Shown: piece after piece, positions 15,552 to 60,260 of the stretch
How positions within the stretch are numbered: position 1 is the first letter of the stretch
Layout of the letters: each line of letters opens with the position of its first letter
Origin: Spirochaetia bacterium
GTDB taxonomy: Bacteria > Oederibacteriota > PGYV01 > Palsa-1178
Direction of reading: 5' to 3'
Assembly (NCBI GenBank): GCA_021372235.1
Contig: JAJFUW010000146.1
Coordinates: 322 to 64,321 of the forward strand
DNA length: 64,000 nucleotides
Made by a program: the position numbers and the translations under genes
The notes under the pieces: model-generated
What the model saw: the letters and a program-made list of their open reading frames with translations, nothing else
Databases searched by the model: none
What the model was told of the DNA's origin: nothing

Positions 15552-15597
15552 GTAACAGCGAGACAGGAGACAAAAGCAGACAGTAAAATAATACAAA

Positions 15598-15635
15598 ACA
15601 GGGCGGGAGAAATCCCGTCCTGTTGCTTTATATAA
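15598..15635 (+). terminator. rho-independent terminator-like hairpin
   Basis: acagggcgggag-aaa-tcccgtcctgt followed by tgctttatat. Confidence 0.45.
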
Positions 15636-15795
15636 AGAAAATGAAATACAGATAGCTCGGTTTGGAGTTTGGAGATATGCCTTAACATTGCATAAAACGG
15701 CAGTATGTGGTATTTTCTAATGGGTTTGTATGGATTATATTCAAACTCCAAACTCAAAAGTCTAAACTGATTTTATCTATTTTTAAAGGAGACCT

Positions 15796-16824
15796 ATGAA
15801 GGAAAAAACATGCATCGCCCTTTACTCCGGCGGGCTTGATTCCCTGCTTGCCGCTAAAGTAATGATGGACCTGGGTTTCAAGGTTATCATACTTAATTTT
15901 TCCACGGGTTTTTTCTTTAATGCCTACACAAAAGACGCAGACGGGGGATTAAAATACAAGGCGCCCGCCCCGGATGGCTACGACATACGTGTGGTGGATA
16001 TATCAAAGGACTTTTTTGAGATGATAAAGAACCCGGCCCACGGTTACGGCTCCAACATGAACCCGTGCATAGACTGCAAGATAATGATGCTCAGGAAGGC
16101 AAAGTCCATGATGGAGGAACTGGGTGCAGGTTTTGTCGTAACCGGCGAGGTCCTGGGCCAGAGGCCCATGAGCCAGAACGGCCATGCCATGATAGAGATA
16201 GAAAAAGAGGCCGGACTGCAGGGATGGCTCCTGCGGCCGCTGTGTGCAAAAAATTTACAGCCCACGGAACCGGAAAATTTGGGATGGGTGGACAGGGAAA
16301 AACTGCTGGATTTTAAGGGCCGCACCCGCAAACCTCAATTGGCAATGGCAAGGTTGCTGGGGTGGCAAAAATACATACAGGCGCCCGCGGGCGGCTGCAT
16401 ACTGACGGATGAGAGCTACTCAAAAAAACTAAAGGATCTTTTTAAACATAAGGGCCGCTCCGAACTCCAAACTTCGAACTCCGAACTGACTTCTGAGGAT
16501 GTCCTCCTCCTCACCCTGGGCCGGCAGTTCCGCAGGGACGGGGTGAAATTCATAATAGGAAGGGACCAGGAAGAGAACAAAAAGATAGCGGAGTTTAAAG
16601 GCAAGGGGACCACGTTTGACACAAAAGGAATATCGGGGCCGACAGGGTTCACACTCGATGCAATTAGCGACGAAATGAAAACATATATAGCGTGCGCAGT
16701 AGCGGGATTTTCCAAGGTCGCGGGGTATTGTGAAGTGGCGGTTGTGGAACAGGGAGAGGAAGAGGTTATCAAGGTGAAACCGCTTAAAAGGGAAGAACTG
16801 GCCCCGTATAGAATAGACGCATAG
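15796..16824 (+). CDS. ThiI-family PP-loop ATPase (tRNA sulfurtransferase-like), THUMP-less, with C-terminal extension
   Basis: PP-loop ALYSGGLDSLLAA. NPCIDCKIMMLRKAKSMMEELGAGFVVTGEVLGQRPMSQ aligns with ThiI PCLKCKRTMYRIAEKIA..AIVTGESLGQVASQT. No THUMP domain. A ~130-aa C-terminal tail holds an in-frame heptad-repeat insertion (SELQTSNSELTSE). Confidence 0.7.
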   Translation: MKEKTCIALYSGGLDSLLAAKVMMDLGFKVIILNFSTGFFFNAYTKDADGGLKYKAPAPDGYDIRVVDISKDFFEMIKNPAHGYGSNMNPCIDCKIMMLRKAKSMMEELGAGFVVTGEVLGQRPMSQNGHAMIEIEKEAGLQGWLLRPLCAKNLQPTEPENLGWVDREKLLDFKGRTRKPQLAMARLLGWQKYIQAPAGGCILTDESYSKKLKDLFKHKGRSELQTSNSELTSEDVLLLTLGRQFRRDGVKFIIGRDQEENKKIAEFKGKGTTFDTKGISGPTGFTLDAISDEMKTYIACAVAGFSKVAGYCEVAVVEQGEEEVIKVKPLKREELAPYRIDA

Positions 16825-16829
16825 AACCG

Positions 16830-16964
16830 CCGTTGTAGCGGAAGTAAAGAGCCCGAAGCGCGACCGCAGGGGTCGCGGCTACGAGAGCGGTTTGTTGATT
16901 AGAGGTGTTTTAAAAGCAGTCGTTGTAGCCGCGACCTTCATGGTCGCGGAAGTGGCAGTGAAAG
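16830..16964. repeat. modular direct/inverted repeat block (CGTTGTAGC..GGAAGT x2 with GCGACC-loop-GGTCGCGG hairpins x2)
   Basis: 16830-16851 ccgttgtagcggaagtaaagag. 16859-16875 gcgacc-gcagg-ggtcgc. 16920-16964 cgttgtagc[cgcgaccttcatggtcgcg]gaagtggcag, i.e. copy 2 is copy 1 with a hairpin inserted. Confidence 0.5.
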
Positions 16965-16973
16965 GATGGTTCT

Positions 16974-17351
16974 ATGAAGTTAATTATAGACGGTTATAAC
17001 CTGATGTACAGGCTGGAACTGGAAGGCTCACTTGAACAGAAGCGCGACGAGATGTTTGAACTGCTCTCCGAGTTCAAAAGCGTCAACCCATGCGACATAA
17101 CAGTTGTTTTTGACGGCAGCCGCAACCCATCCACGCAGAGGGGCAGGGAATTCAAACTCGGAATAAATGTCATATACTCTGCACGGGGCGAAACAGCCGA
17201 TGATATCATAATGGAAATGGCTGAAAAGCACACCATGGGCAAGGCAAAGGAAAACATCGTGGTCTCCTCGGATAACCGCGTCCGTAATTTTGCCGTGGAA
17301 CATTTCATGAAAGGGATGACGAGCGACGAGTTTGCGGAGTACCTGATATGA
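16974..17351 (+). CDS. NYN-domain (YacP/Rae1-like) putative ribonuclease
   Basis: LIIDGYNLM...DITVVFDG...INVIYSARGETADDIIMEMAE...IVVSSDNRVRN parallels B. subtilis YacP (LLVDGYNMI, VIVVFDA, VEVIFTKENETADERIE, IHVATSD). Confidence 0.7.
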   Translation: MKLIIDGYNLMYRLELEGSLEQKRDEMFELLSEFKSVNPCDITVVFDGSRNPSTQRGREFKLGINVIYSARGETADDIIMEMAEKHTMGKAKENIVVSSDNRVRNFAVEHFMKGMTSDEFAEYLI

Positions 17352-17545
17352 GGCGAAGAGACTGAAGACAGGAGACAGGAGTACTTCAAAACATAAAACA
17401 GGTCTTGTTTGTTCTACTTTTATCTCCGGTCTCCTTCCTACCGCCCAAAACCCATCCAAATTTTGCTTGACTTTCAGGGAAAATTTGTTATATTTAGGCA
17501 TCCTATTTATTTATTAGGCTTAAAAATAATTAGAGGCAAAAACAA

Positions 17546-18022
17546 ATGGACAGGAACACTGCAGAGATTATTGAGTGCATCAAATTTATGGGAAAGATAA
17601 ACAAACCCATGATGCCGCACCATTTCAAAAAGAGAGGCGTCATGGACCTGACGCTTTCCCAGCTTGACGTTATGGGATATATGTATGAGGTGAACACGGA
17701 GAAGCCCAGGCGTGTCAAGATGAGCGATCTTGCCAGGCATGCCGGGGTTAAGATGCCTACAATGACCGATATGGTAAACAAACTGGTAAATGCCGGGCTG
17801 GTTATGCGGGAACATGATGAGGCGGACCGCAGGACCGTCTGGGTGAGCGTTTCCAGAAATATGGAAAAGATGGTATGCGGCCACATAAAGGAAAGGGACA
17901 ACGAAATATCGTGCATCATGGACTGCCTGACGGAGAAAGAGAAAAAGCAGGCGGCGGTCATATTGAAAAAAATTAAAAACTCTATGGAAGAGAGGATGAC
18001 AAAATGGGCAAAAAGTCACTGA
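17546..18022 (+). CDS. MarR-family transcriptional regulator
   Basis: LTLSQLDVMGYMYE...MSDLARHAGVKMPTMTDMVNKLVNAGLVMREHDEADRRTVWVSVS is a winged-HTH MarR pattern. First gene of an efflux operon. Confidence 0.75.
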   Translation: MDRNTAEIIECIKFMGKINKPMMPHHFKKRGVMDLTLSQLDVMGYMYEVNTEKPRRVKMSDLARHAGVKMPTMTDMVNKLVNAGLVMREHDEADRRTVWVSVSRNMEKMVCGHIKERDNEISCIMDCLTEKEKKQAAVILKKIKNSMEERMTKWAKSH

Positions 18023-18603
18023 TATTTATGCTCCTTGCACTGGTTCTGACGGTACCGGCTTTTGCCGGAAACAGGATATTTTTCACGGAATACGGGATTT
18101 CATACGCAAGTCCCCTGGAACCGTCAAACATGGAGAACAACACGACGGGGACATACGACACGGCCGCGTTTGACATCAAGGCGGGTGTGAACATATTGAA
18201 ATGGGCGGGTGTTTACGGGCTGACCGGATTCCAGATGTTCGTCGACAGGACGGGGACACAGCAGCACTATTCATTCTTCCCGATAGGTATAGGAGTCAGA
18301 GCAAACATATTTCCGGAATGGCCCGTATATCCGGATTTTATTTTTGAGTACGGCAGGGCTTTTGCCAACAGGCACACCCGCTGGACGGTGCCGGCGCCGG
18401 CGCCCTATTACACAGCGGTTGTCACTAACGACGGGCCGTGGACGGCGGATTATTACTCGTTCGGATTCGGCGTTAACTGGAACATCACCTATGTTTCGGT
18501 CATCTCGCTCAGGTTCGAGAGGCCTTCGTTTTCGAATACAGATTCTTCAGGCGGCGAGATACACATAGCAAAACTCGGCCTTGCCTGGAAACTATTTTAT
18601 TAA
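18004..18603 (+). CDS. small outer-membrane beta-barrel protein, hypothetical
   Basis: Signal peptide MGKKSLIFMLLALVLTVPAFA. Alternating hydrophobic pattern. C-terminal ...LAWKLFY. Confidence 0.55.
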   Translation: MGKKSLIFMLLALVLTVPAFAGNRIFFTEYGISYASPLEPSNMENNTTGTYDTAAFDIKAGVNILKWAGVYGLTGFQMFVDRTGTQQHYSFFPIGIGVRANIFPEWPVYPDFIFEYGRAFANRHTRWTVPAPAPYYTAVVTNDGPWTADYYSFGFGVNWNITYVSVISLRFERPSFSNTDSSGGEIHIAKLGLAWKLFY

Positions 18604-18614
18604 GGAGTGCCATA

Positions 18615-19961
18615 ATGGAAAACAGATCAAAGATAACAAATCCAAAATTAACGGCAATGTTGGCAGCGATGGTTCTTACAGCGCTTCCGGTCATGGCAAT
18701 GGAGGCAAATACCGTCACCGCGCAGGCGGCGCCGGAAACCATAGTTCTGACATACGACGAAGCCTATAAACGCGCGTCGGAATTTAACAGGGAATACAGG
18801 TCTGCAAAACTTGACAAGGAGATATCGGAGGCGCAGCTGCAGAAAGCCGCGGCAGGTTTCGGGCCTACGGTCTCCCTGGTAGGGCAGGCGGAACCGTGGG
18901 GCAAACCGACAACCATGAATTTGGGGGGGATGTCGATGAGCTCTTCGATTTACAACTACTATGCGAAACTCTCGCTCTCGCAGCCGGTCTTCACTTTCGG
19001 CAAGTCACTATTTGGCTACAAGATGGCGGAAGAGGGATACAATATCGGGCAGATAAAGTTCAAGCAGGCCTCCGAGAAGCTGGAACTGGACGTCATCTCC
19101 GCGTTTTACGGCGCACTCATTGCAGGACAGATGGACGACACCATGCAGGAAACGCTGAAAGCCAACGAGGAGTATCTGCGCATAACAAAGACGAAATATA
19201 AGAACGGACAGGCTTCCAATTTTGATGTTCTGCAGGCTCAGGTAAAATACGCCAACGCCATACCGGACGCGCAGAAGGCCGCGGATGGCGCCAAACTTGC
19301 CATGCAGATGCTGAAAAATACCATCGGGCTTCCTATGGACGCGCCGGTTGAGTTATCGGGAGCGCCCGAATACAAAAAGATAACCATGACCTATGACGAG
19401 ATGAAAAAACGGTTTTCGGAAAAGAACGACGAGCGCAACATGATCAACTCGGCGGCCAACATAGCCGAGTATTCGCACCTGCTCGCCGGAGCCATGCTGC
19501 TGCCAAACATAGCGCTTTCCGCAAACTACACATGCTATTCCACGGATACGGCTTTCCACACTGAATCCTCATACTGGACCAATTCCTGGGACATAGCGAT
19601 AGGGCTGCAATGGACAATATACAGCGGGTTCAAGAACGTCGCGGCCATAAAAGAGGCATCTGCAAACAGGGAAAAGGCCAGGCTGACAGAGGAGAACACG
19701 GAAAACCTGCTCACCATACAGCTCGACCAGCTATATACGTCGCTGGAACAGTCGGGTAAGGTCATCGAGGCTGCCGGAGACATCATAAAGCAGGCCGAAG
19801 AGGGCTACAGGATAGCGGAGGAGTCCTACAAAAACGGGCTTATCCAGTCCGTGGACCTGCTGCAGGCCCAGACAGGGCTGCTGCAGGCAAAGATTAACTA
19901 CCTATCAGCGCTTATGAACTATACCACGACCGCGCAAAAACTGAAAAATTTCATCGAATAA
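18615..19961 (+). CDS. TolC-family outer membrane efflux protein
   Basis: Signal peptide, two repeated OEP-like halves (e.g. LTYDEAYKRASEFNREYRSA.. and ..GYRIAEESYKNGLIQSVDLLQAQTGLLQAK), 448 aa. Confidence 0.8.
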   Translation: MENRSKITNPKLTAMLAAMVLTALPVMAMEANTVTAQAAPETIVLTYDEAYKRASEFNREYRSAKLDKEISEAQLQKAAAGFGPTVSLVGQAEPWGKPTTMNLGGMSMSSSIYNYYAKLSLSQPVFTFGKSLFGYKMAEEGYNIGQIKFKQASEKLELDVISAFYGALIAGQMDDTMQETLKANEEYLRITKTKYKNGQASNFDVLQAQVKYANAIPDAQKAADGAKLAMQMLKNTIGLPMDAPVELSGAPEYKKITMTYDEMKKRFSEKNDERNMINSAANIAEYSHLLAGAMLLPNIALSANYTCYSTDTAFHTESSYWTNSWDIAIGLQWTIYSGFKNVAAIKEASANREKARLTEENTENLLTIQLDQLYTSLEQSGKVIEAAGDIIKQAEEGYRIAEESYKNGLIQSVDLLQAQTGLLQAKINYLSALMNYTTTAQKLKNFIE

Positions 19962-20002
19962 AACAAAGCCGGTCAACCGGCGATACAAAAGGAGGAAATT
20001 TA

Positions 20003-20920
20003 ATGAAGAACGACACGATCAAAAAGATAGGTTTATGGACTGTCATAATTTTGGCAGCCATAATAGTCGTAAGGATAGGTATATCGTTGGAAAAAAGCAG
20101 GAAAAAACCTTCGGACGTGATATTTAGCGTCAATACCGTTAAACTCGCGAAACAGAATATAACCCGCGTCATGTCGATACAGGGGATAGTCGAGGGCGAC
20201 CCTCAGGTAAAAGTGTACCCGCAGGTGCCGGGTAAGTTCGCAAGGAACAATGTGAGCGAAGGTCAGATGGTAAACAGGGATGATGTCATAACCTATATAG
20301 ACCGCGACATTGTCGGCGCCAGTTACGAACTTGCGCCGGTCAAGGCGCCGGTATCCGGCATGGTGACTAAACTATATTACATAGACAGAGGGGACAGCGT
20401 TTCCCCGCAGATGCCGGTGGCCGAGATAGCCAACCAGGACAGCATCAAAGTGGTGTTCAATGTCGGCCAGGATGACCTGTTAAAACTGAAAAAGGGAGAC
20501 AGGGTCGTCATATCGTATATCAATGACAGCGCAATATCAATGGAGGGCGAGGTCGTATCAGTGCCCCCTGTTGTGGACAAGGATATCATGGCCGGTACGG
20601 TAGTCGTGAAGGCACCGAACAAGGGCAGGACGATGAAAATCGGTATGTCGGTCAATGTGGACATCAGTTATTCGCAGGGAACAGCGTTCATGGTGCCTGA
20701 AAAGGCGGTCCTGCTCGGGGACCAGAGATCATACGTGTACGTGAATAAAAGCGGTACGGCTCAGAGTGTTGACGTGAACCTGGATTACAGGCTCAATGAT
20801 ACCATCGAAATAACGGGCGCGCTGGCAGAAGGCGACGAGGTCATAACTGACGGCAGTTATAAATTGTATGACGGCGCGAAAGTCTCAACGGCCGCGTTCG
20901 AACCAAAAGAAAAAAAGTAG
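20003..20920 (+). CDS. RND efflux periplasmic adaptor (membrane fusion protein, HlyD family)
   Basis: N-terminal TM segment, then lipoyl/beta-barrel pattern (YPQVPGKFARNNVSEGQMVNRDDVI...APVSGMV). Confidence 0.8.
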   Translation: MKNDTIKKIGLWTVIILAAIIVVRIGISLEKSRKKPSDVIFSVNTVKLAKQNITRVMSIQGIVEGDPQVKVYPQVPGKFARNNVSEGQMVNRDDVITYIDRDIVGASYELAPVKAPVSGMVTKLYYIDRGDSVSPQMPVAEIANQDSIKVVFNVGQDDLLKLKKGDRVVISYINDSAISMEGEVVSVPPVVDKDIMAGTVVVKAPNKGRTMKIGMSVNVDISYSQGTAFMVPEKAVLLGDQRSYVYVNKSGTAQSVDVNLDYRLNDTIEITGALAEGDEVITDGSYKLYDGAKVSTAAFEPKEKK

Positions 20921-20967
20921 TTTGGCAAAAATACTGACAGCGTGACGAAAATACAAAGGAGCGGTTT

Positions 20968-23900
20968 ATGAATATAGCAGGATTGGCGATAAAAAAGCCG
21001 GTGTTTGTAGTGATGATAGTGTTTTCTGTCATCACCCTCGGACTTTTGGGATTCTCGAGCCTACCGTGGGACCTGATGCCAAACGTTGAGTTACCGTCAA
21101 TGACGGTCAGCGTTATTTATCCGGGAGCCTCGGCCGAGGAGATGGAAAACCTGGTTGCAAAACCACTTGAGGATTCTTTCATGGTTCTGGAGGGCATAGA
21201 TACTGTGACCACGTCGTGCTACGAGTCGATGGCGATGGTGACAACAGCGTTTAAAATGGGAGATGACATAAAGTTTGCCGAGATAAAAGTGCGCGAAAAA
21301 GTGGATCTCGTTAAACCCAAACTGCCGGAGGATATACAGGATCCCACAATACGGCGCATAACACTCGAGGATATACCTATTATGTACATGTCACTGACGG
21401 GCCAGCGCGATTCCGCGACCCTGCGCGACATAATGGAAAACGACATAAAACCACACATAGAAACAGTCCCGGGAGTGGGTTCCATATCGATAATCGGAGG
21501 CAGGGACAGGGAAGTAAAGATAACCGTCAACAAAGCAATGCTGCTGGCAAAGGGAATATCAATAGGCCAGATACAGAATGCCCTAAATATGCGCAACATG
21601 AACTTCCCTGTGGGAGTTATCGAAGGGGTGGAAAAGGACATATCTGTCAGGGTTGTAGGGCAGTTCAAGTCAACGGATGAAATAGCGAACCTTACCATGA
21701 CATCCACGACCGGCAAGATAGTCAGGATAAAGGACGTGGCGAAGGTGCAATTTGGCTTCGCGGACGAGGACGCCAAAGTACGGGTGGATAACAAGCAGGC
21801 TGTCATGGTCATGCTCTATAAACAGTCGGGGGCCAACTCGGTCAAGGTGGCGGACGATGTCAATTATGAGGTCAACAGGATAAACAAGACTCTGCCGCAG
21901 GATATTAAACTCAAAATCGCGGGAGATACAACCACAAGCATCAAGCGTTCCGTGTCCGGAGTGCTCGAGAACATCATATTGGGAGCCTTACTGGCAATTG
22001 TCATAGTGTTTTTGTTCCTCGGAAATTTCAGGTCGGCCATAATCACGGCGGTTGCACTGCCAAACTCCATAATTGGCGCTTTCTTCCTGATATGGGTAAG
22101 CGGCTTTACAATCAATACAATCACGTTGCTCTCACTGGCGCTGGCTGTCGGGCTTTTGATTGACGACTCGATAGTCGTCCGCGAGAACATATTCAGACAT
22201 ATAGAGGAGGGAATGGGCCCGAAAGAGGCGGCGGAAAAGGGCACAAACGAGGTGGCGCTCGCGGTCATATCAACGACGCTTTCCGTCATGGCCGTGTTTT
22301 TGCCGATATCGTTTTTAACCGGAATGGCCGGCCAGGTATTCAGGCAGTTCGGGTTGACCGTTGCTTTCTCACTGCTCATATCGCTGCTGGACGCTTTCAC
22401 CACGGCCCCGATGCTTTCCGCTTACTGGTATAAAAAACGGGACGAGGGAAAGAAGCGCACGGGTTTCACAAAATGGCTCTACAACGACATGATAGGCGCA
22501 TGGAACAGGTTCTATGACGGACTGACCGTATATTACAAACAACTCGTCGGCTGGGCAATGGAAAACAAGTCAAAGGTATGGCTCTCCGTGGGAGTATTGC
22601 TCGTGGTCAGTCTGACATCGTTCGGATTTGTCGACAAGTCTTTCATGAACAGCAATTCGGGTGTGTTCATGGTGAACATAGAAACCTACCAGGGTTGTCC
22701 GCTTGAAAAAACGGACAGCTATCTGAAGGAACTGGAGCAATATATTGGAACCCTGGATTCGATCGAGTCCTATTTCGTGCTGGCAGGTACCAACGGCCGG
22801 TCGGCCTCGTCAAACCAGGGAATGGTATTCGTTTCCATGAAAAAATTGTCCGAGAGGAAGCACACGGAAGAACAGCTGAAACAGATGATAAGGGATTACA
22901 TTGACAAAAATCAACTCAACAAATATTTCAACTATTCCATAGGCAGCGGCATGGGCGGGATGTCAACCTCACCTATCCTCATAAGCATAACAGGGCCCGA
23001 ACTCGGGGTATTGGAGGAAATGTCGCTCAAAATCAAAAAGGTGGTTATGGAAACACCCGGAACAGCGGATGTAGATATGACATTAAAGCCGGGCAAACCC
23101 GAGATAGTCCTGCACGTGGACGGTATCAAGTCGGAGAAACTGGGTATTTCCGCGGCAGAGGTCGGCATGATGATACGTACTCTGGTCCAGGGATCCACGG
23201 TAACAACCCTGAAACAGGGTGAGAAAGAGTATGACATAAACATCAGGCTTGACGAAAAGAGCCGCAGCAGTGTTGACAACTTAAAGAACCTGACCATAAC
23301 AAACAGGATGGGCAAAAAAATACCTCTGACTGCTGTCTGCGAATTTGCTTACGGGTCGGGTTCCACGGAAATACGCAGGGAAAACAAGCAGAGGATAGCC
23401 CGCATATCTGCCAACGCGGCAAAAGGTTACAGCGCGGGAATGTTGAACGACAGGATAAAGAAAAAACTTAATGAAGAGGTCAAATTGCCGGACGGCTATT
23501 CGTACGTAGAGGGAGGCATGTCAAAGCAGTTCATGGATTTGACAAAGGAGATGGTAAAGGCAATGGTGCTGGCGGTCCTTTTCATGTACATGATCCTGGC
23601 GTCACTTTACAACTCATTTACCCAGCCTCTCATTATTATGGTGGCCGTGCTTCTGGCGCTGCTGGGCGGGCCGATAGCACTGCTCGTCACGGGCTCGCCG
23701 CTTGACATGTTTGGGTACATAGGGCTTTTGATGGTGCTCGGGCTCGCGGCAAAAAATGGTATTTTGCTCATTGATTTTGCGAACAAAAAACGAGAGCAGG
23801 GGCTTGGTATACGCGAGGCAATCCTGGAGGCGGCGCCCGTGCGCCTGCGCCCGATACTCATGACAACGCTGGCCATGATATTCGGAATGCTCCCGATAGC

Positions 23901-24081
23901 CCTTTCAATGGGTGAAGGGTCAAAAGGCAGGGAAGGGATGGCCATAATAGTCATAGGCGGCCTGATAACCTCCACTTTGTTCACGCTTGTGGCGGTGCCG
24001 ATAGCCTATGAATGGATGGAGAATAAGAAACTTGCGAGAAAAAAGAAGAAAGCGGATGTGCTTAAGTTAAAACATAAATAG
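20968..24081 (+). CDS. RND efflux transporter permease (AcrB/CzcA family)
   Basis: 1037 aa, 12-TM architecture with two large periplasmic loops. Conserved VVRENIFRH, LLIDDSIVV and GIREAILEAAPVRLRPILMTTLAMIFGMLP motifs. Confidence 0.9.
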   Translation: MNIAGLAIKKPVFVVMIVFSVITLGLLGFSSLPWDLMPNVELPSMTVSVIYPGASAEEMENLVAKPLEDSFMVLEGIDTVTTSCYESMAMVTTAFKMGDDIKFAEIKVREKVDLVKPKLPEDIQDPTIRRITLEDIPIMYMSLTGQRDSATLRDIMENDIKPHIETVPGVGSISIIGGRDREVKITVNKAMLLAKGISIGQIQNALNMRNMNFPVGVIEGVEKDISVRVVGQFKSTDEIANLTMTSTTGKIVRIKDVAKVQFGFADEDAKVRVDNKQAVMVMLYKQSGANSVKVADDVNYEVNRINKTLPQDIKLKIAGDTTTSIKRSVSGVLENIILGALLAIVIVFLFLGNFRSAIITAVALPNSIIGAFFLIWVSGFTINTITLLSLALAVGLLIDDSIVVRENIFRHIEEGMGPKEAAEKGTNEVALAVISTTLSVMAVFLPISFLTGMAGQVFRQFGLTVAFSLLISLLDAFTTAPMLSAYWYKKRDEGKKRTGFTKWLYNDMIGAWNRFYDGLTVYYKQLVGWAMENKSKVWLSVGVLLVVSLTSFGFVDKSFMNSNSGVFMVNIETYQGCPLEKTDSYLKELEQYIGTLDSIESYFVLAGTNGRSASSNQGMVFVSMKKLSERKHTEEQLKQMIRDYIDKNQLNKYFNYSIGSGMGGMSTSPILISITGPELGVLEEMSLKIKKVVMETPGTADVDMTLKPGKPEIVLHVDGIKSEKLGISAAEVGMMIRTLVQGSTVTTLKQGEKEYDINIRLDEKSRSSVDNLKNLTITNRMGKKIPLTAVCEFAYGSGSTEIRRENKQRIARISANAAKGYSAGMLNDRIKKKLNEEVKLPDGYSYVEGGMSKQFMDLTKEMVKAMVLAVLFMYMILASLYNSFTQPLIIMVAVLLALLGGPIALLVTGSPLDMFGYIGLLMVLGLAAKNGILLIDFANKKREQGLGIREAILEAAPVRLRPILMTTLAMIFGMLPIALSMGEGSKGREGMAIIVIGGLITSTLFTLVAVPIAYEWMENKKLARKKKKADVLKLKHK

Positions 24082-24095
24082 GATTTCCGTAAAAT

Positions 24096-24130
24096 AAAAA
24101 GGCGCGGGTTTCCCCGCGCCTTTTTATTTT
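24096..24130. terminator. bidirectional rho-independent terminator
   Basis: aaaaaggcgcggg-tttc-cccgcgccttttt-atttt between convergent RND and queH genes. Confidence 0.7.
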
Positions 24131-24281
24131 AGGGTGACAGGAAGCGGGATACAGGACAAAAAGGGCCCCGTCGTATTTGAAGAGGAACTACCGGCGGTTA
24201 ACGCAGACGGGATACGGCCGGAGCAGCCTTTCCGGAATCTAACATGAAACGTGATGAAGCTTTCCGGCAGGGAGCAGCCGG

Positions 24282-24881
24282 TTATAACGATTGGCGCGCG
24301 CAGGACCGATGTGTGTTAGTTTTTGTATTACTCCGCCTGAGTTTTTCCCTTAACGAATATGCGCACCCGCAATAATCCTGCCTGTAGAGCCCGTATTTTT
24401 TTGAAAGCTCGATGGATTTTTTAAACCCGTCCTTTTTTTTGAAATCAGACATCAGGTAATTGACCCCGTATTTTTCAGCGGCCTCCGCCCCGAGTTTGTT
24501 AATCAGTTTTGCGTCCTTATGCGGGGATATGGTGAGCGTGGTGGCAAAAGTTTCATAGCCGGAAACTTTTGCCGCCTGCGCGCTTTTGTCCATGCGCATT
24601 CTGAAACACTCCTCGCACCGTTTACCGCGTTCGGGTTCGTTTGCGTGGGGCCTGCACCGTTCAAACCATTCTTTAATATCGTAGGGGACATCGGGGATAT
24701 TTTTTACCGCAACGGCGGCTGCAAGTTTTTCCATGTCCGCGACGCGTTTGTGGTACTCGTCGCGCGGGTGTATGTTCGGGTTGTAGAACCACGTCTCGGG
24801 TTCGTACCCGTCCTCACGCAGCGCGTTTATGGAGTGCGTCGCGTCCGGCGCGCAGCAGACGTTCAAAAGTATTTTTTTCAT
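24282..24881 (-). CDS. queH: epoxyqueuosine reductase QueH (DUF208)
   Basis: LLNVCCAPDATHSI and RQDYCGCAYSL motifs characteristic of QueH. C-terminal ~25 aa look like run-on to the next stop. Confidence 0.75.
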   Translation of the reverse strand: MKKILLNVCCAPDATHSINALREDGYEPETWFYNPNIHPRDEYHKRVADMEKLAAAVAVKNIPDVPYDIKEWFERCRPHANEPERGKRCEECFRMRMDKSAQAAKVSGYETFATTLTISPHKDAKLINKLGAEAAEKYGVNYLMSDFKKKDGFKKSIELSKKYGLYRQDYCGCAYSLREKLRRSNTKTNTHRSCARQSL

Positions 24882-25366
24882 GGCTATATTTTACCATAAA
24901 ACAGTCTAAAATTCCCGCAGGTTCCGACCGGTCGTTTTTTTGTAGTTGTGTTTTGAACGGCCGGCGCCCCTGTTTTTCCGGCCGTTCCGGTTTGGTGTGT
25001 TCGTGTTTAACCTTGCACTTGCATGCAAGCGTAGTGGAGGCTCCGCGTAACGCGTTTAATAGACGTCGCATGCGGCGGTTTGAAGGCCTGCTGTTGAGGG
25101 CAAGAGTTATCTTGAGTCCCTTGCGACCGGAAAAACAGTGGTGCCGGCCGTTCCGTGGTTATGCTGTGGTTGTGTCGCCTACATTATTATATAGTAACAT
25201 AAAATCTAATGTTTGTTTATTGGCCAAAAGGCTATGAGGATATTGGATAAAAACAACTCGGCAAATTTATACTTGACATATTTGATAGACTTTGTTATAT
25301 ATTAAATGTATATAAAAAAGACAGACAATGTAGAGTATTAAATAGTGAAAGAGGAGTATATATAAT

Positions 25367-25837
25367 ATGAAGATATCATTCAAAGGCGACTACGCGATCA
25401 AGACGCTGGTCTTCCTCGCGCTCAGGCACAGCGACAGTGCGGAGGAGAACCGCTATTGCCAGATATCGGAAATATCCCGGAGCCAGGATATCCCAAAAAA
25501 ATTCCTCGAGCAGATACTGCTGACGTTAAAGAACGCGGGTTACGTCAACAGCCAGCGCGGGGTGAACGGCGGTTATGTCTTTGCCAAGGACCCGCGCGCG
25601 GTGACCCTCGGCGAGATAATAAGACTAATGGACGGGACAACGGCTCCAATCGCGTGCGTCTCGCGTTCATGTTACCAGGCGTGTGACTATGAAAAGAGAT
25701 GCGTTTTGAAACCGGTATGGGAAAATGTCCGCGAAGCGGAGAATAACATAGTGGACAGGGTTACGTTCTATGGACTGGCAAAGGAACAGGCGGAGCTGGA
25801 CAGGAAGAGCGTTGAGACGTTTGTGTACAACATATAG
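25367..25837 (+). CDS. Rrf2-family transcriptional regulator (IscR/CymR-like), likely regulator of the downstream Cys/Met genes
   Basis: Rrf2 N-terminal HTH (ISEISRSQDIPKKFLEQILLTLKNAGYVNSQRGVNGGY) and a C-terminal Cys cluster ACVSRSCYQACDYEKRC. TTGACA-17-TATATA promoter at ~25273-25301. Confidence 0.8.
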   Translation: MKISFKGDYAIKTLVFLALRHSDSAEENRYCQISEISRSQDIPKKFLEQILLTLKNAGYVNSQRGVNGGYVFAKDPRAVTLGEIIRLMDGTTAPIACVSRSCYQACDYEKRCVLKPVWENVREAENNIVDRVTFYGLAKEQAELDRKSVETFVYNI

Positions 25838-25844
25838 AGTGGCA

Positions 25845-25913
25845 GAGACTGGAGATTGGAGACTGAAGTACGGCAAGAGCGTGTCTGTTTTACTATAGTC
25901 TCCAATCTCCAGT
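25845..25913. repeat. GGAG-heptad inverted repeat hairpin (likely terminator of the Rrf2 gene)
   Basis: agactggagattggagact (25845-25863) pairs with agtctccaatctccagt (25897-25913); ~33-nt loop. Confidence 0.45.
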
Positions 25914-26071
25914 TTCTTAAACTCGCAACAACAAATGAAAGCAGGAACAACACATGACAAAAAAAGAACAAAGATGCAAAACCCGGGCGGAGAACTGCTT
26001 CATGCGACAATTAATTTGATCGGCTGCGCAAGTATATTCAAAAATACCACAAAAAAAAAGGAGAAACAAAG

Positions 26072-27346
26072 ATGAGCAAATACAAATTTGAAACACTGCA
26101 GCTGCACGCGGGACACACGCCTGACAGGGACACACATTCAAGGGCGGTACCGATTTACCAGACAACTTCTTATACGTTTGAGGGAACACAGGATGCGGCG
26201 GATCTTTTCGCGCTGAAAAAGCCCGGCAACATCTATGCCAGGCTCCAGAACCCCACAACAGGCGTGCTGGAAGAAAGGATAGCGGCGCTGGAGGGCGGCG
26301 CGGCCGCGCTTGCTTTTTCGTCGGGAATGGGCGCTATCACGGCCGCGATAATCGGACTGGCCTCGGCCGGCGACGAGATAGTATCCGCGTCAAACCTGTA
26401 CGGCGGAACAGTGACGCTTTTCGCTCACACACTGCGCAAGCTGGGCATAAATGTTAATTTTGTGGATGCCAAAGACCCGGAAAATTTTAGAAGGGCAATT
26501 ACGCCAAAAACAAAAGCCCTCTATGCGGAGACTCTCGGCAATCCGGAACTGAACATACTGGACATAGAAGCCGTCGGAAAGATAGCACGAGAGGCTAAGA
26601 TACCGCTCATAGTGGATTCGACGATGACCCCGCCTTCGATTCTCAGGCCATTGGAACACGGCGCGGACATCGTGGTGCATTCGCTGACAAAGTATATGGG
26701 CGGACATGGCACGTCGCTGGGCGGCATAGTCGTTGACTCCGGAAAATTTGACTGGGCCAACGGAAAATTCAACGGCCTCGTTGAGCCGGACGAGTCATAT
26801 CACGGGTTGAAGTTTTATGAAACATTCGGGCCTCTGGCGTACATCGTCAGGCTCAGGGTATCGACGCTCCGTGATACCGGAGCGGCTTTGAGCCCGTTCA
26901 ACGCGTTTTTGATACTGCTGGGAGTGGAGACGCTCTCCCTGCGCATGGAAAGGCACTGCGAGAACGCGTTAAAGGTAGCGAAATGGCTCGAAAAGAACCC
27001 GAATATAGGCTGGGTAAACTATCCGGGCCTGCCTTCCTCGCCGTCATATAAGCTCGCGCAAAAATACATGCCGGGAGGCGCTTCAGGAATGATAGCCTTT
27101 GGCATAAAGGGCGGAGTGAAAGCGGGGGTGAGTTTTATAAATAACGTAAAACTCCTCTCGCACCTGGCCAATATCGGCGATGCAAAAACGCTCGTGATAC
27201 ATCCGTGGACAACAACGCACCAGCAGTTGACGGACGAGCAGAAGCGGGGCGCGGGTATTACCGAGGATTTTATCAGGCTGTCAGTGGGTATTGAGAACGC
27301 GGACGACATCATTGCCGATATGGAACAGGCTTTAAACAAGAACTAA
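26072..27346 (+). CDS. metY: O-acetylhomoserine sulfhydrylase (PLP-dependent, Cys/Met metabolism family)
   Basis: FETLQLHAGHTPDRDTHSRAVPIYQTTSYTF and the PLP-lysine region VVHSLTKYMGGHG. 424 aa, typical MetY length. Confidence 0.85.
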   Translation: MSKYKFETLQLHAGHTPDRDTHSRAVPIYQTTSYTFEGTQDAADLFALKKPGNIYARLQNPTTGVLEERIAALEGGAAALAFSSGMGAITAAIIGLASAGDEIVSASNLYGGTVTLFAHTLRKLGINVNFVDAKDPENFRRAITPKTKALYAETLGNPELNILDIEAVGKIAREAKIPLIVDSTMTPPSILRPLEHGADIVVHSLTKYMGGHGTSLGGIVVDSGKFDWANGKFNGLVEPDESYHGLKFYETFGPLAYIVRLRVSTLRDTGAALSPFNAFLILLGVETLSLRMERHCENALKVAKWLEKNPNIGWVNYPGLPSSPSYKLAQKYMPGGASGMIAFGIKGGVKAGVSFINNVKLLSHLANIGDAKTLVIHPWTTTHQQLTDEQKRGAGITEDFIRLSVGIENADDIIADMEQALNKN

Positions 27347-27415
27347 GAAACTGTTCCGGGTTCCAAAGTGTTTCGCTGTTTTTTGGAACCTGTAACAAAA
27401 ACAAGGAGGTCTTAA

Positions 27416-28351: not shown

Positions 28352-28354
28352 AGG

Positions 28355-28395
28355 AGAGGAAACGAGCCAGGAGCCAGAAGCCAGGAGGAAAAAGG
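28355..28395 (+). repeat. 3-prime GGAGCC(A)G heptad repeat element, copy A
   Basis: aggagaggaaacgagccaggagccagaagccaggaggaaaa, 4 nt after the cysK stop. ~85% identical to 60193-60228. Followed by further short tandem repeats (ggcagaaggcagaaag; gtgcaagtaaaagtgcaagcc). Confidence 0.5.
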
Positions 28396-28653
28396 CAGAA
28401 GGCAGAAAGTGCAAGTAAAAGTGCAAGCCATAAGTAAAGTTTAGGAAAAATTGGGAAAGTATGGAAGGTATTAAAGGAAACCTTTGCCACTTTTGAATTT
28501 TTGTATTTTAATACTTAATTTGTGGGTTATAACTTGTGGCTTGTTCTTATACTTAATCGCACACTTCTCCCTCAAAAAAACCACCACAAATTCACCAGAT
28601 TTATGATATAATTTTTTTCAGATAAAAAAAACGACAGGAGAAAACGCGAAAAA

Positions 28654-29844: not shown

Positions 29845-29936
29845 GGGCGAAATTAACAATGAATAATTAATAATTGAAACGAAAGCCTTTCATCACTAAT
29901 TGTTAATTATTAATTTGTAAAAAGAAAGGTTGTCAA

Positions 29937-30593: not shown

Positions 30594-30871
30594 ATAATTA
30601 GTATAATTAGCAATGAATAATATCCTTCCATAAATACCTTCCAAACAAACAATTGCTTTAAAATCCAAAAATACGGATGTTTTTTAAAAAAATCCGATTA
30701 TTCCTTTAAAATAAGGGGTATTTTTATTAAAACCCCGTTATTTTCGCATAATAACGATGTTTTTTATTGACACCATATCTATAGTGTGTTATAAATGACC
30801 AAAATACAATATATGGTATAAATTGATAAGGGGAAACGCGGGAAAAGCGCATTAATTAAAAGGAGGAGTAA

Positions 30872-31450: not shown

Positions 31451-31481
31451 AATATTTTTAAAAACCTCAAGGAGGAAAAGC

Positions 31482-31754: not shown

Positions 31755-31771
31755 TATCCAAATAAACACCG

Positions 31772-31810
31772 GAAGCCCGGGGAAACGTCCCCGGGCTTCT
31801 TAATTTCTAA
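31772..31810 (+). terminator. rho-independent terminator
   Basis: gaagcccgggg-aaacgt-ccccgggcttc then ttaatttct. Confidence 0.6.
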
Positions 31811-31877
31811 AAACCCCTGTCCACCCTCCCGGTCCTTTTCCTTGTTTTTCGCAAGGTTTTATCCTATAATTATTCCT

Positions 31878-39990: not shown

Positions 39991-40053
39991 CAGTTTGGAG
40001 TTTGGAAACAAGGCCAAACTCCAAACTGAAGTTATTTGTTTTTAATATTTTTT
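39991..40053 (+). terminator. rho-independent terminator built from a GGAGTTT heptad inverted repeat
   Basis: cagtttggagtttgg-aaacaaggc-caaactccaaactg (perfect 15-bp stem) followed by aagttatttgtttttaatattttttt. Confidence 0.7.
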
Positions 40054-49573: not shown

Positions 49574-49635
49574 AATAATGGAGGTTGTATTATTAATTAT
49601 TCATTATTAATTATTAATTGTCCTGAGCGGCAAAG

Positions 49636-54622: not shown

Positions 54623-54633
54623 GAGCGGATATC

Positions 54634-54742
54634 AGAGACCGGAGACCGGAGACGGGAGCATTGCCCCGGATCCATCTCCGGACCTTATAATGCGCAAGTG
54701 ATACGGCCGGGAAATGGGACGGGTGTTTTTTCAGCCTCCGGT
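54634..54742. repeat. long-range GGAGACC-heptad inverted repeat between tsf and pyrH
   Basis: agagaccggagaccggagacggg (54634-54656) pairs with cctccggtttccggtctct (54724-54742), one mismatch, ~70-nt loop. Confidence 0.45.
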
Positions 54743-54780
54743 TTCCGGTCTCTATCACTACGCTACTGCGGAGGTTCTGC

Positions 54781-57663: not shown

Positions 57664-57698
57664 TATCAAAAGTTTAAAACTTTATACCCGGAGTTTTT

Positions 57699-58847
57699 AT
57701 GAAAAGCGTAGTGATCCTCGGCTCCACAGGCTCCATAGGAAAGTCCGCACTTGACCTTTTTACCAACGGCCCGCTGAAAGACTGCAGGGTATTGGCGCTT
57801 TCCGCCAACGAGAACGCGCAGGAACTGGCCGCGCAGGTGAAAAAATTCAGGCCAAAATACGCCGTGATAGGGAACCCGGAAAAGGCCGGAGTCATAAAAA
57901 AGGCGTCCCGCTCCACAAAGGTGCTCGCCGGGACCGAAGGGCTCATCAAAATAGCGGCTCTAAAAGAAGCCGACATTATACTTCTGGCGGTTGTCGGGGC
58001 CGTAGGGATACTGCCGCTATTGTCCGCGGTGCGTGCCGGCAAAAAAATAGCCATGGCAAACAAAGAGGCGCTGGTAATGGCGGGCTCGATAGTGATGAAG
58101 GCGGCGCAAAAATACGGCGCGCGCATCATACCGGTGGATTCCGAACATTCGGCAATATTCCAGGCGTTGCAGGGCAACAGGCCGCAGGATGTCAAACGGC
58201 TCATCATAACGGCGTCGGGCGGGCCGTTCAAGGACATGGAGCCGTCGCAGTTAAAGTCCATAACCCCGGCGCAGGCATTGCGGCACCCGACGTGGAAAAT
58301 GGGCAAAAAAATAACCATAGACTCCTCGACGCTCATGAACAAGGGGCTCGAGGTGATAGAGGCGCATCACCTGTTCGGCCTGCCTTTTGAAAAAATAGAG
58401 GTGGTCATCCATCCGCAGTCGGTGATACATTCCATGGTGGAATACATCGACGGTTCTATCATAGCCCAGATGTCGCACCCGGACATGAGGCTGCCGATTC
58501 TCTATGCGCTGACATACCCGGAGCGCAGGCAGGGCGTGATAAAACCCATGGCGCTGTACGATATCCAAAAACTCGAGTTCTTTAGGGTGGATTTCTCGCG
58601 TTTCCCGTGTTTCAAACTGGCGTTAAAGGCCGGTATCGCGGGCGGGACCATGCCGGCGCGCATGAACGCGGCAAACGAAACGGCCGTACGCAGTTTCCTG
58701 AACAACAGGATAAAATATAACGACATACCATATTACGTCAGGCGCGCGATGCAAAAGCACGTGAATGTAAAAAATCCGGACCTGCAGGCCATACTAAAGG
58801 CGGACCTTGCGGCGCGCGCGGACACGGAGGCAATGATAGATGCTTGA
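57699..58847 (+). CDS. dxr: 1-deoxy-D-xylulose 5-phosphate reductoisomerase
   Basis: ILGSTGSIGKSALDL, MANKEALVMAG, PVDSEHSAIFQAL, GGPF. Confidence 0.95.
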   Translation: MKSVVILGSTGSIGKSALDLFTNGPLKDCRVLALSANENAQELAAQVKKFRPKYAVIGNPEKAGVIKKASRSTKVLAGTEGLIKIAALKEADIILLAVVGAVGILPLLSAVRAGKKIAMANKEALVMAGSIVMKAAQKYGARIIPVDSEHSAIFQALQGNRPQDVKRLIITASGGPFKDMEPSQLKSITPAQALRHPTWKMGKKITIDSSTLMNKGLEVIEAHHLFGLPFEKIEVVIHPQSVIHSMVEYIDGSIIAQMSHPDMRLPILYALTYPERRQGVIKPMALYDIQKLEFFRVDFSRFPCFKLALKAGIAGGTMPARMNAANETAVRSFLNNRIKYNDIPYYVRRAMQKHVNVKNPDLQAILKADLAARADTEAMIDA

Positions 58848-60189
58848 GATAATTTACATAGTTGTAACGATAGGACTGACCATATTTGTGCACGAACTGG
58901 GCCATTTTCTGACGGCAAAAAGACTCGGGATAACCGTGGAGAAATTCGCCATAGGCTGGGGACCCACGCTGTGGTCGTTTAAAAAAAACGGGACCGAGTA
59001 TATCATTGCCCTGTTTTTTTTCCTCGGAGGTTACGTCAAGATGGCCGGCGAGAACCCGGCTGAGGCATCCGCGGCACCGGTGGAAGGCGGGTTCCTGCAG
59101 CAGCCGATCTGGAAAAAAATCGCCATATCTGTTGCGGGCGTCACCATGAACGCGGTATTTGCCGTGTTCCTCATGTGGGTCGTATATCTGGCGGGCACGG
59201 AGACATTAAAACCCGTCATAGACGAGGTCAAGGAAGGGTACCCCGCGTATGCGGCCGGGATGCAGAGAGGCGACACGATAACAGAGGTGAACGGCACGAA
59301 GATCAGGTACTGGAACGAGATAAGCGAGCGGGTCGCGGAGTCAAAAGGGGAGATATCCGTCAGGGCATTGCGCGGCGGAAAGGAAATCGCTTTCACCATA
59401 ATCCCGAAGACCGAGGAGTATGAGGACCTGCTGAAGGAAAAAAAGACAAAACCCGTCATAGGCATATCGCCGCTGGCATACATACCGGTTGTGGAAGAAC
59501 TGAAAAAAGGTTATCCGGCCGAGGCTGCGGGTATGAAAAAAGGGGACAGGATAATTTCCATAGACGGCAAAAAGATACAATACTGGGAAGATGTCACGGC
59601 CGCGGTCAACGCCTCAAAAGGCTCTGAGATTACGGTTGAACTGGAATCGCAGAACGGCGATTTTGGGGCCGTAACACGGAAGATAAAATTGAGCCCAAAA
59701 AAAGAAGTGACACAGGACAGGGATAAAAAAAACACGGAGTCCTATCTGCTGGGCATAATACCGGCCGGCAGCGTCGTAAAAGAAACATACGGACCGCTCA
59801 AGTCGCTCGAAAAAGGCGCGGCACAGTGTTGGTACTTCACCGAGTTGACCGTGAAATCAGTCGGCAAGATGATCACCCGCAAGATAGAGCCTGACGTGGC
59901 GGGCCCCATAGGCGTGGCGCAGATAGCCTACAAAGTAGCCAAAACAGGAATCGTGAACCTGTTGCTTTTAATAGCCATAATAAACATAAACCTCGCTATT
60001 TTTAACCTGCTCCCGCTGGTCCCTTTTGACGGAGGTCTGATACTCATGTTCCTGATAGAGGGCGTAACCGGCAGGATGGTGCCGCTCAAGGTGCAGGAAG
60101 TCATGATGGAAATAGGATGGTTTTTGGTCATGGCACTCATTGTATTTGTTACTTACAGCGATATAATGAGGATTATCAGCGGCGGATAG
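58840..60189 (+). CDS. rseP: RIP metalloprotease RseP (site-2 protease, two PDZ domains)
   Basis: HELGHF zinc motif in TM1, two PDZ-like segments (GYPAYAAGMQRGDTITEVNG; GYPAEAAGMKKGDRIISIDG), C-terminal LPLVPFDGG. Confidence 0.9.
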   Translation: MLEIIYIVVTIGLTIFVHELGHFLTAKRLGITVEKFAIGWGPTLWSFKKNGTEYIIALFFFLGGYVKMAGENPAEASAAPVEGGFLQQPIWKKIAISVAGVTMNAVFAVFLMWVVYLAGTETLKPVIDEVKEGYPAYAAGMQRGDTITEVNGTKIRYWNEISERVAESKGEISVRALRGGKEIAFTIIPKTEEYEDLLKEKKTKPVIGISPLAYIPVVEELKKGYPAEAAGMKKGDRIISIDGKKIQYWEDVTAAVNASKGSEITVELESQNGDFGAVTRKIKLSPKKEVTQDRDKKNTESYLLGIIPAGSVVKETYGPLKSLEKGAAQCWYFTELTVKSVGKMITRKIEPDVAGPIGVAQIAYKVAKTGIVNLLLLIAIININLAIFNLLPLVPFDGGLILMFLIEGVTGRMVPLKVQEVMMEIGWFLVMALIVFVTYSDIMRIISGG

Positions 60190-60192
60190 CAA

Positions 60193-60260
60193 CAGGGAAC
60201 GAGCCGGAGCCGGAAGCCGGGAGGAAAACCGGGACCGGCTCCGTTGTTGCTTTACTTTTG
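60193..60260 (+). repeat. 3-prime GGAGCCGG heptad repeat element, copy B, with partial hairpin
   Basis: agggaacgagccggagccggaagccgggaggaaaa begins 4 nt after the rseP stop. ~85% identical to copy A (28355-28395). Followed by ccgggaccggctccgttgttgct, which partially pairs back. Confidence 0.5.

Follow-up and report, generated by a model that had tools for sequence, protein, structure and literature searches.

Tandem heptanucleotide arrays just after stop codons, about half with an inverted partner, in an uncultured bacterium

Intergenic arrays of tandem heptanucleotides have been noted since 1990 and are overrepresented in several phyla, as a kind of repeat unexplained in both origin (why seven?) and function. 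Here, we describe arrays of this kind in a 64-kb contig stretch (the window, to which all window counts refer) of an uncultured bacterium. The arrays of the window extend this kind of repeat to a distant, uncultured lineage and agree with the known ones in architecture: about four units, a conserved core, placement behind the stop codon, and convergent inverted pairs. The reading that we favor, with about even confidence, is that the arrays are locally generated and homogenized heptad modules which, when paired, act as stem-loops at messenger RNA (mRNA) 3' ends or between cistrons.

The closest described systems are found in Xanthomonas and Nostoc. Each Xanthomonas genome has ~185 heptamer arrays of the GGGAATC type, 89-93% of them intergenic and most with four units (Rehm et al. 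2015, PMC4692102). Their mean distance is 28 nt to the upstream open reading frame (ORF) and 160 nt to the downstream ORF, and 70-75 convergent inverted pairs are among them. The same gene pairs carry them in two species, with variation in length and sequence, and no function was found (PMC4692102). In Nostoc, heptamer repeats affect expression, according to a preprint (10.1101/2022.06.06.494920). The window arrays share with the Xanthomonas GGGAATC and Nostoc GGGGA(C/T)T arrays their 7-nt tandem units, conserved core with variable positions, strongly intergenic location, closeness to the end of the upstream ORF, modal number of four units, and many convergent inverted pairs. As in Xanthomonas, arrays recur between the same gene pairs of relatives while differing in length and sequence. 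Unlike these systems, the window has a GGAG core with no G3-4 tract, several unit subfamilies (AT-rich ones included) coexist within 64 kb, and the host is an uncultured metagenome-assembled genome (MAG) labeled Spirochaetia, whose relatives by IspG include Candidatus Goldbacteria. On all structural features tested except the G3-4 tract, the window arrays fit the intergenic heptanucleotide kind of long simple-sequence repeat (LSSR).

G-quadruplex formation has been proposed for the Xanthomonas and Nostoc arrays. Because the window units have no G3-4 tract, that rationale does not apply here, and the absence of G-tracts speaks against the explanation more generally. Four G-containing units are the number that a quadruplex requires (an idea from PMC4692102), and four GG/GGG runs are present at 54641-54658. 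However, units carry only GG, the arrays at 17357 and 25844 have fewer than four GG runs, the structure is impossible for AT-rich arrays and for the GATAT-type arrays of relatives, and half of the arrays are locked in Watson-Crick stems. We therefore reject the quadruplex class for the window and consider quadruplex-forming repeats very improbable as an explanation.

Other heptad repeats match in part. In Geobacter metallireducens, 49 elements with the consensus GGACCGG (Gmet_H4##) were annotated as a "four tandem heptanucleotide repeat", some inside genes and others in the spacers, alongside class-3 sites of MTYCTGA x5 in an inverted five-heptad arrangement (Aklujkar et al. 2009, PMC2700814). 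The H4 elements are, like ours, four-unit heptad modules found between and inside genes, some Geobacter classes form inverted pairs, and ACCGGGG is 6/7 identical to the window's ACCGGAG on rotation; Geobacter copies share one consensus (BLAST-matched), whereas the window triplet varies from copy to copy. Heptanucleotides are the most abundant LSSRs in repeat-rich prokaryotes, and polymerase slippage was proposed as their source (Mrazek 2007, as summarized in PMC4679880). Those LSSRs and the cyanobacterial STRR family (Mazel et al. 1990) resemble the window arrays as amplified heptanucleotides overrepresented in the noncoding DNA of certain lineages, although an STRR array may reach considerable length and its units are fixed. 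The TAACTGA repeats of Beggiatoaceae, of which 169 sets are direct and a single repeat is indirect, are likewise intergenic heptamer direct repeats of two to six copies, with a patchy phyletic distribution and a suspected post-transcriptional role; unlike the window arrays, they have a single fixed unit, lie immediately before start codons, and almost never form inverted pairs (MacGregor 2015, PMC4679880).

REP/REPIN elements, which are mobilized by RAYT (Y1) transposases, are also abundant intergenic hairpin-forming elements that follow genes. Unlike the heptad elements, REPs show no 7-nt periodicity inside the element; they are palindromes headed by GTAG, and their copies are nearly identical. 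Work by Liang and colleagues from 2015 reportedly found that a REP close to a stop codon can alter both the stability of the mRNA and translation upstream of the element.

Enrichment, anatomy, and position of the arrays

Period-7 tandem arrays are strongly overrepresented in the window, with nine observed against 0.17 ± 0.37 expected (lag-match scan, 30 dinucleotide shuffles). The motif frequency is thus not random, in agreement with the initial annotation, which had reported GGAG heptads from the letters of the DNA. Non-triplet periods of 4, 5, 8, 10, and 11 give zero or one array each in the same scan, which is background, and seven is also the dominant short tandem period according to Tandem Repeats Finder. 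Fourteen of 18 period-7 arrays (score of at least 7) are intergenic, though only 10.8% of the window is; arrays of periods 6, 9, and 12, unlike these, are coding. The motif GGAGNNNGGAG has 11 copies against 1.65 expected, a number reached in 0 of 100 shuffles, and the three-unit pattern GRAGN3GRAGN3GRAG has seven copies against 0.07 expected. In intergenic DNA, the autocorrelation peak at lag 7 is due to the detected arrays: masking them abolishes it, and no further 7-nt periodicity is present outside them. Overall array density is ~22 per 100 kb. Heptads are present at all eight loci originally listed, but that list, correct in every entry, was incomplete: it lacked 27352-27397, 53967, the in-gene copy at 16458-16487, and the AT-rich arrays at 29851/29897 (an inverted pair) and 49589, which show that heptad arrays in the window are not only of the GGAG kind.

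The GGAG arrays are four-unit heptad modules, with GGAG plus a variable triplet as the core typical of this genome. Six of them (15559, 17357, 25844, 28363, 54634, and 60200) align in register with four units each, in the order (A/C)GAGNNN, GGAGNNN, G(G/A)AGNNN, GGAG... The G[G/A]AG core is invariant across the alignment and the remaining triplet is variable. All six, and the in-gene copy, have three to four units plus a terminal GGAG. Within arrays the triplets are 0.87 identical, compared with 0.33 between arrays (permutation P < 5e-5). Some copies resemble each other beyond this: 28359-28396 and the array at 60195 are near-identical 38-mers in which every unit has A in the former and G in the latter, and the arrays at 17357, 25844, and 54634 share a T-rich tract that precedes the 3' arm.

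The arrays are also positioned precisely. Measured from the first base of the stop codon, the starts of the six GGAG arrays lie at 8-14 nt, or 5-11 nt past the codon, which puts a figure on the "few" nucleotides first proposed; the copy at 39991 begins 20 nt past its stop codon. Across 19 spacers of three genomes, the first array in a spacer lies a median of 12 nt after the stop (P ~ 0.001 against uniform placement). Arrays lie nearer to the upstream ORF, with a median distance of 12 nt from the stop; the median distance to the next start is 30 nt and the largest is 246 nt. No preference for a particular stop codon is evident upstream of the arrays.

Such regularity could reflect recognition, in line with the RNA-protein code that the initial annotation offered as one possibility. 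Four evenly spaced GGAG motifs just behind the terminating ribosome, which contain GGA and resemble Shine-Dalgarno (SD) sequences, might recruit a CsrA-, Csp-, or S1-like protein or the 16S anti-SD, with the inverted arm as a masking sequence. The conserved core amid variable positions fits this idea, as do the fixed spacing, number, and stop-codon offset, the GGAG/GGAGG-type ribosome-binding sites of the window, and the unpaired arrays found in spacers such as rpsB-tsf, in which a terminator would do harm. Comparable proposals exist for the TAACTGA repeats (PMC4679880) and the Nostoc heptamers (10.1101/2022.06.06.494920). However, the same spacers of relatives use unrelated units (GATATNN, CAGATAT, CGGAATC, and AT-rich ones), so that there is no single conserved recognition sequence, and the window's own AT-rich arrays lack GGAG. 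Moreover, the GGAG motifs of the hairpins lie in stems rather than loops, and the next start codon is 95-300 nt from the arrays. We consider binding-site arrays a rather improbable explanation.

Inverted partners and predicted hairpins

We find an inverted partner within 200 nt for 17 of 33 arrays from the window and three of its relatives (loci L004, L006, and L092), against 2-4 of 33 in reversed or complemented controls. Because this inverted array lies 8-85 nt downstream in about half of cases, the mRNA can fold into a long stem near the stop codon. The base of the stem is 0-11 nt from that codon, and in 13 of 14 hairpins the 5' arm is the one rich in G or purines, as judged from the folded sequences of the window and its relatives. 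RNA folding z-scores are -8.6 for 25838-25930, which contains a perfect 22-bp stem, -6.6 for 39971-40060, -5.0 for 54623-54770, -3.4 for 15655-15775, and -3.1 for 60190-60265.

The initial annotation had assigned downstream reverse-complement arms to several copies, with loops of 9 to ~70 nt. Folding recovers hairpins at the paired sites with z-scores of -3 to -8.6, and more weakly with the partner at 17422 (-2.0). Loops are indeed variable, over a somewhat wider range of 8 to 84 nt, and about half of all arrays are paired, with 15559-15583 and 28363-28388 among those that lack an inverted copy. The heptads noted in a leader at 15661-15674 are likewise real, and they form the 5' arm of a 15-bp stem with 15742-15768. 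A second possible partner for the leader array (15660-15674) is the in-gene array, which lies 800 nt downstream and could form 15 bp with it, one of them a G-U pair. The match may have come about only because both arrays belong to one family, or it may represent an alternative long-range interaction. At the unpaired 28363-28388 array, the surrounding 28345-28590 folds into a long imperfect hairpin (z = -3.2) with the heptad arrays in its internal loop. Its 5' half is purine-rich and its 3' half pyrimidine-rich, and it covers the whole 3' region of the PALP-enzyme gene.

Two familiar classes of RNA element do not describe these hairpins. Among the heptad hairpins, the terminator consensus (a GC-rich stem, a loop of 3-8 nt, and a U-tract directly behind the stem) is matched by 39991-40028 only, on both strands, which bears out the proposal of a perfect terminator at this copy. 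The hairpins at 54634 and 60200 fail the consensus scan, and the list of terminator-like structures for 14000-32000, which covers 17357 and 25844, includes no heptad hairpin; as a group, the heptad hairpins do not fit the intrinsic (Rho-independent) terminator class. That the copies are not a collection of unrelated terminators, as had been suspected, is evident from their shared period, ~4 units, GGAG core, stop-codon offset, and G-rich-arm-first order. Rfam covariance models give no match at the gathering score anywhere in the window and none with E ≤ 1 that overlaps an array, and we reject a single Rfam-type RNA family.

Related genomes and the origin of the units

We compared the window with related loci, labeled L001, L004, L006, L088, and so on, whose closeness was judged by IspG identity. 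The IspG of the window is 100% identical to an NCBI protein from a MAG labeled "Spirochaetia bacterium"; the next relatives are 67-80% identical in IspG and include MAGs labeled Candidatus Goldbacteria. The comparison centered on the syntenic cluster rpsB-tsf-pyrH-frr-uppS-cdsA-dxr-rseP-ispG-proS. Array density per 100 kb is 22 in the window, 57 in L006, 19 in L004, and 4.8 in L001, compared with 2.9 in 80 control loci (1.36 Mb, mostly Firmicutes) and 4.1 in 70 metagenome loci. The negative control set came from an IspG-alignment search of genome contigs, in which the matches listed were mostly Lachnospiraceae at 52-60% identity; an AcrB search of genome contigs gave no match, and an exact look-up with the window's IspG gave no contig.

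The array trait is patchy across related genomes. L004 and L006 (71-72% identical in IspG) have arrays in almost every spacer of the cluster, most with an inverted partner, and the units (GATATNN, CAGATAT, GGAGTTC, TCAAAAG, and the 9-mer RTCTCARNN) are unlike those of the window. The cluster spacers of L163 contain 9-mer hairpins, and those of L164 contain CGGAATC/GGATTCC heptads. L001 and L088 (79-80% identical in IspG) and L162 (76%), which by this protein are closest to the window, instead have GC-rich terminator-like hairpins there, or hardly any spacer, while L090 has no arrays in the cluster and L091 only weak two-unit ones. Orthologous junctions thus differ in the make of their hairpins: a hairpin at, for example, the tsf-pyrH junction recurs, but its construction differs. 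These loci extend the array kind beyond the window, as the first description of the family had implied.

Two observations on the units of these relatives stand apart. RTCTCARNN arrays with inverted partners (L163 9796-10000; L004 11060-11163) form hairpins in the rseP-ispG and ispG-proS spacers, so the design with tandem-repeat arms is not confined to period 7. In L164, the heptads GGAATCC/GGATTCC/GACTCCG occur at 4461-4573, 5848-5874, 20151-20166, and 20246-20262, and the unit CGGAATC is 6/7 identical to the Xanthomonas unit GGGAATC.

An array inside a gene is informative about origin. The in-gene array at 16458-16487 sits in the linker between ThiI-like and NFACT-R domains and represents an in-frame insertion of 7 amino acids (21 nt, three units) relative to most of eight aligned orthologues. 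In the same linker, the L092 orthologue has a different heptad array, AAATCTC x4. The numbers of units in the two arms of a hairpin can also be unequal, as in L004 cdsA-dxr and L006 tsf-pyrH. Together with the uniformity of units within arrays, the in-gene insertion and the unequal arms show that 7-nt units are amplified locally at the DNA level; within coding sequence, only multiples of three units survive. The unpaired arrays of the rpsB-tsf spacer in the window, L006, and L091 are built from related units, a resemblance suggestive of vertical inheritance with drifting units.

Across 15464-15795 (L158 851-1185, ~330 nt), the metagenome contig L158 matches the window at 100% identity, compared with 87% overall; this block holds a gene end, three arrays, a terminator, and the leader hairpin. 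Its flanking genes have diverged by 8-38%, mostly at third codon positions. Recent recombination is likelier than extreme constraint as the cause of this identity, and the pair is consequently uninformative about array stability. The duplicate contigs L006/L007, L001/L002/L003, and L004/L005 are identical or differ by one or two bases, with no gaps, and provide no information on polymorphism. Phase-variable contingency simple-sequence repeats were rejected as a class, because the arrays lie 3' of genes and three of them are identical in L158.

The initial annotation suggested a mobile or templated small element, MITE- or REP-like. The templated or mutational part of that suggestion fits the data, given the triplet identities (87% against 33%) and the three-unit in-frame insertion; MITE- or REP-like mobility does not. 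A MITE (miniature inverted-repeat transposable element) was rejected because the copies resemble each other in the heptad arms only: their loops and flanks show no relationship, and neither shared termini nor target duplications were seen. REP/REPIN was rejected because the heptad elements lack a GTAG-headed palindrome and their copies differ. We also find no RAYT gene in the window by tblastn (best E, 0.19). Classical REPs do occur as families distinct from the heptads. The window has a single GTAG-headed REP-like inverted pair at 16825-16973 (GTAGCCGCGACC...GGTCGCGG; forward at ~16925, reversed at ~16871), its only two copies. At L006 12900-13800, the elements on either side of a Y1_Tnp (RAYT-like) gene (13079-13624) are classical REPs, GTAGGGGCGATTCACGAATCGCCC, rather than heptads. 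The same REP is found at L089 3885-4120, and L004 has a REP-like palindrome without a GTAG head, GCAGGGGCGATTCATGAATCGCC, after proS.

Small dispersed modules of another sort are also conceivable, in which a ~28-nt block would be copied or synthesized at new sites, in either orientation, by a putative enzyme, and two insertions of opposite orientation would yield a hairpin. The six GGAG arrays do share architecture beyond periodicity, the 38-mers at 28359 and 60195 are near-identical, three arrays have the T-rich tract in common, and the in-gene copy comprises all four units of a module in the opposite orientation. Similar units recur at nonorthologous sites (GGAGTTC and GAGATTG GAGAC in L006, AATAATGAATAATTAATAAT in L092). 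The rseP-ispG spacer, compared with that of L001, resembles an inserted hairpin with terminal inverted ends, and Geobacter H4 elements occur both within and between genes. Nevertheless, conserved termini and target duplications were not seen and loops are unrelated, the window has no transposase or RAYT, and the rpsB-tsf array is seemingly vertical, its units drifting across the window, L006, and L091. Units are uniform within a copy and differ between copies, which is not expected from the copying of a master element. We regard mobile or templated modules as unlikely.

Under the reading that we favor, modules would arise and be remodeled by local amplification of units, through slippage or concerted evolution; they accumulate at the very start of 3' untranslated regions or intercistronic spacers. 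We infer that the hairpins act at the RNA level: the stems may attenuate or terminate transcription, block 3' exonucleases, or provide double-stranded processing sites. They would stand in for the ordinary GC-rich terminators that sister genomes have in the same spacers, and the same process of amplification would have left the unpaired arrays and the in-gene array as by-products.

Amplification need not have been put to use. A lineage-specific quirk of replication or repair that favors 7-nt slippage could leave arrays wherever they are harmless, and the hairpins would then be ordinary terminators that became expanded. The patchy phyletic distribution even among close relatives, the arrays in a tolerant protein linker, and the standing of heptanucleotides as the commonest LSSRs of repeat-rich prokaryotes, ascribed to slippage (Mrazek 2007, as relayed by PMC4679880 and PMC4692102), are consistent with such a neutral by-product. 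But arrays are strongly biased to the first ~12 nt past the stop even in spacers of 190-300 nt, their unit number is narrowly about four, inverted partners are in excess, perfect stems of 15-22 bp are kept, and the rpsB-tsf array is kept across genomes only 68-72% identical in IspG. A purely neutral origin therefore appears quite improbable to us. The favored reading and its four alternatives are not mutually exclusive.

Several observations weigh against the reading of amplified modules that act as stem-loops. About half of the arrays are unpaired, including two of the best GGAG arrays. A terminator-like U-tract is present at one heptad hairpin only (39991-40028), and several classical GC-rich, U-tailed terminators occur elsewhere in the window; since most heptad hairpins fail the terminator consensus alongside these, they form a distinct class. 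For 14 of 17 elements, the predicted fold is stronger on the sense than on the antisense strand; this lends weak support to a role in RNA because the strand is purine-skewed anyway, and that skew, instead of selection, could be the cause of the bias. No difference in array copy number was seen in L158, the one close relative, where the segment is 100% identical and so uninformative. Plain slippage would not predict a unit number and an offset so constant or a core common to the arrays, features that look more designed, and the parallel A/G change in all three units between 28359 and 60195 is unexplained by simple duplication plus point mutation.

Because simple slippage does not explain this fixed number and offset or the parallel difference, more novel readings stay alive. 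The boldest is that the four-heptad module (GGRNNNN x4, G-rich arm first, behind a stop) is one widespread, unrecognized system in Xanthomonas, Geobacter, Nostoc, and this lineage, with dedicated templated writing or a conserved reader factor at translation termination or the mRNA 3' end. We think this doubtful; if true, the factor could be found by phyletic profiling, since a given spacer has arrays in some sister genomes and none in others. Relatives with and without heptad hairpins at orthologous spacers, together with the in-gene three-unit insertion, make the questions of origin and function testable.

Feature coordinates and other observations

Table 1. Heptad arrays, their partners, and an associated terminator in the window (positions are those of the window; z, RNA folding z-score).
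Feature	Position	Strand	Remarks
Array CGAGACA GGAGACA AAAGCAGACAG	15559..15583	+	8 nt after TAA of gene 14820-15551; no inverted partner
Classical terminator	15597-15624		Downstream of the unpaired 15559-15583 array
GTTTGGA x2 array	15660..15674	+	5' arm of 15-bp stem, leader of ThiI-like gene; z -3.35
CAAACTC x3.9 array	15742..15768	+	3' arm; pairs with 15660-15674
CTCCGAA x4.3 array	16458..16487	+	Inside ThiI/NFACT-R gene; reverse complement of GGAGTTC GAAGTTT GGAGTTC GGAG
Array AGAGACT GAAGACA GGAGACA GGAGTAC	17357..17384	+	5 nt after TGA of NYN/YacP-like gene
ATCTCCGGTCTCCTTCC	17422..17438	+	Inverted partner (imperfect) of 17357 array; z -2.0
Array AGAGACT GGAGATT GGAGACT GAAGTA	25844..25870	+	6 nt after TAG of Rrf2 regulator gene; 5' arm of perfect 22-bp stem; z -8.59
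3' arm TACTATAGTCTCCAATCTCCAGTTTCT	25891..25917	+	Unit order mirrors the 25844 5' arm
Hairpin GTTCCGG GTTCCAA ... TTGGAACC	27352..27397	+	Weak two-unit heptad between two Cys/Met-metabolism genes; z -3.92
Array CGAGCCA GGAGCCA GAAGCCA GGAGG	28363..28388	+	11 nt after TAG of PALP-enzyme gene; unpaired
AAGGCAG x2, second array	28392..28409	+	Beside the 28363-28388 array
AT-rich array AATTAAC AATGAAT AATTAAT AATT	29851..29875	+	5' arm
AT-rich 3' arm TAATTGT TAATTAT TAATT	29897..29915	+	Pairs with 29851 array
CAGTTTGGAGTTTGG	39991..40005	+	5' arm of perfect 15-bp stem after DEAD-box helicase gene; z -6.62
CCAAACTCCAAACTG	40014..40028	+	3' arm of 39991 stem, then T-rich tail; terminator-like on both strands
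AT-rich array ATTATTA x4.4	49589..49619	+	Unpaired; reverse complement nearly matches an array in L092
Weak array AAAACTG AAATCTG AAA	53967..53983	+	rpsB-tsf spacer; related units in same spacer of L006 and L091
Array AGAGACC GGAGACC GGAGACG GGAG	54634..54658	+	11 nt after tsf stop
CCTCCGGTTTCCGGTCTCT	54735..54753	+	Inverted partner of 54634 array, ~84 nt downstream; 18 nt, 94% complementary; z -4.97; alternative local pairings compete
Array CGAGCCG GAGCCGG AAGCCGG GAGG	60200..60224	+	After rseP stop
Partner CCGGCTCCG + TTGTTG	60235..60249	+	TTGTTG pairs with CAACAG at 60190-60195; z -3.08

The gene content of the window is of the diderm type (AcrB, OmpA, and CHU_C/FlgD_ig sorting domains), and from 7 kb onward nearly every gene is on the + strand. 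No tRNA genes were found in the window. A 30-nt inverted repeat at 24955-25153, 90% complementary and with arms 139 nt apart, lies in or beside a small ORF (24953-25237).

At 63465-63806, the leader and start of a gene for a cold-shock domain give a subthreshold match to the Rfam cspA thermoregulator (49 bits; gathering score, 78). The csp leader hairpin GTTGTAGAATTCGTTCTACAAGAT is conserved in the window, L004, and L163, and a more diverged version, GTAGATTTAAGGTCTACAAG, is found in L164. Finally, near-identical promoter-like 60-mers, AATAATTGAAATCTG(T/C)CAAAAAATCTACTATAAT..., at 6661-6720 and 12430-12500 sit upstream of two very large surface-protein genes (7069-12405 and 12507-14786).

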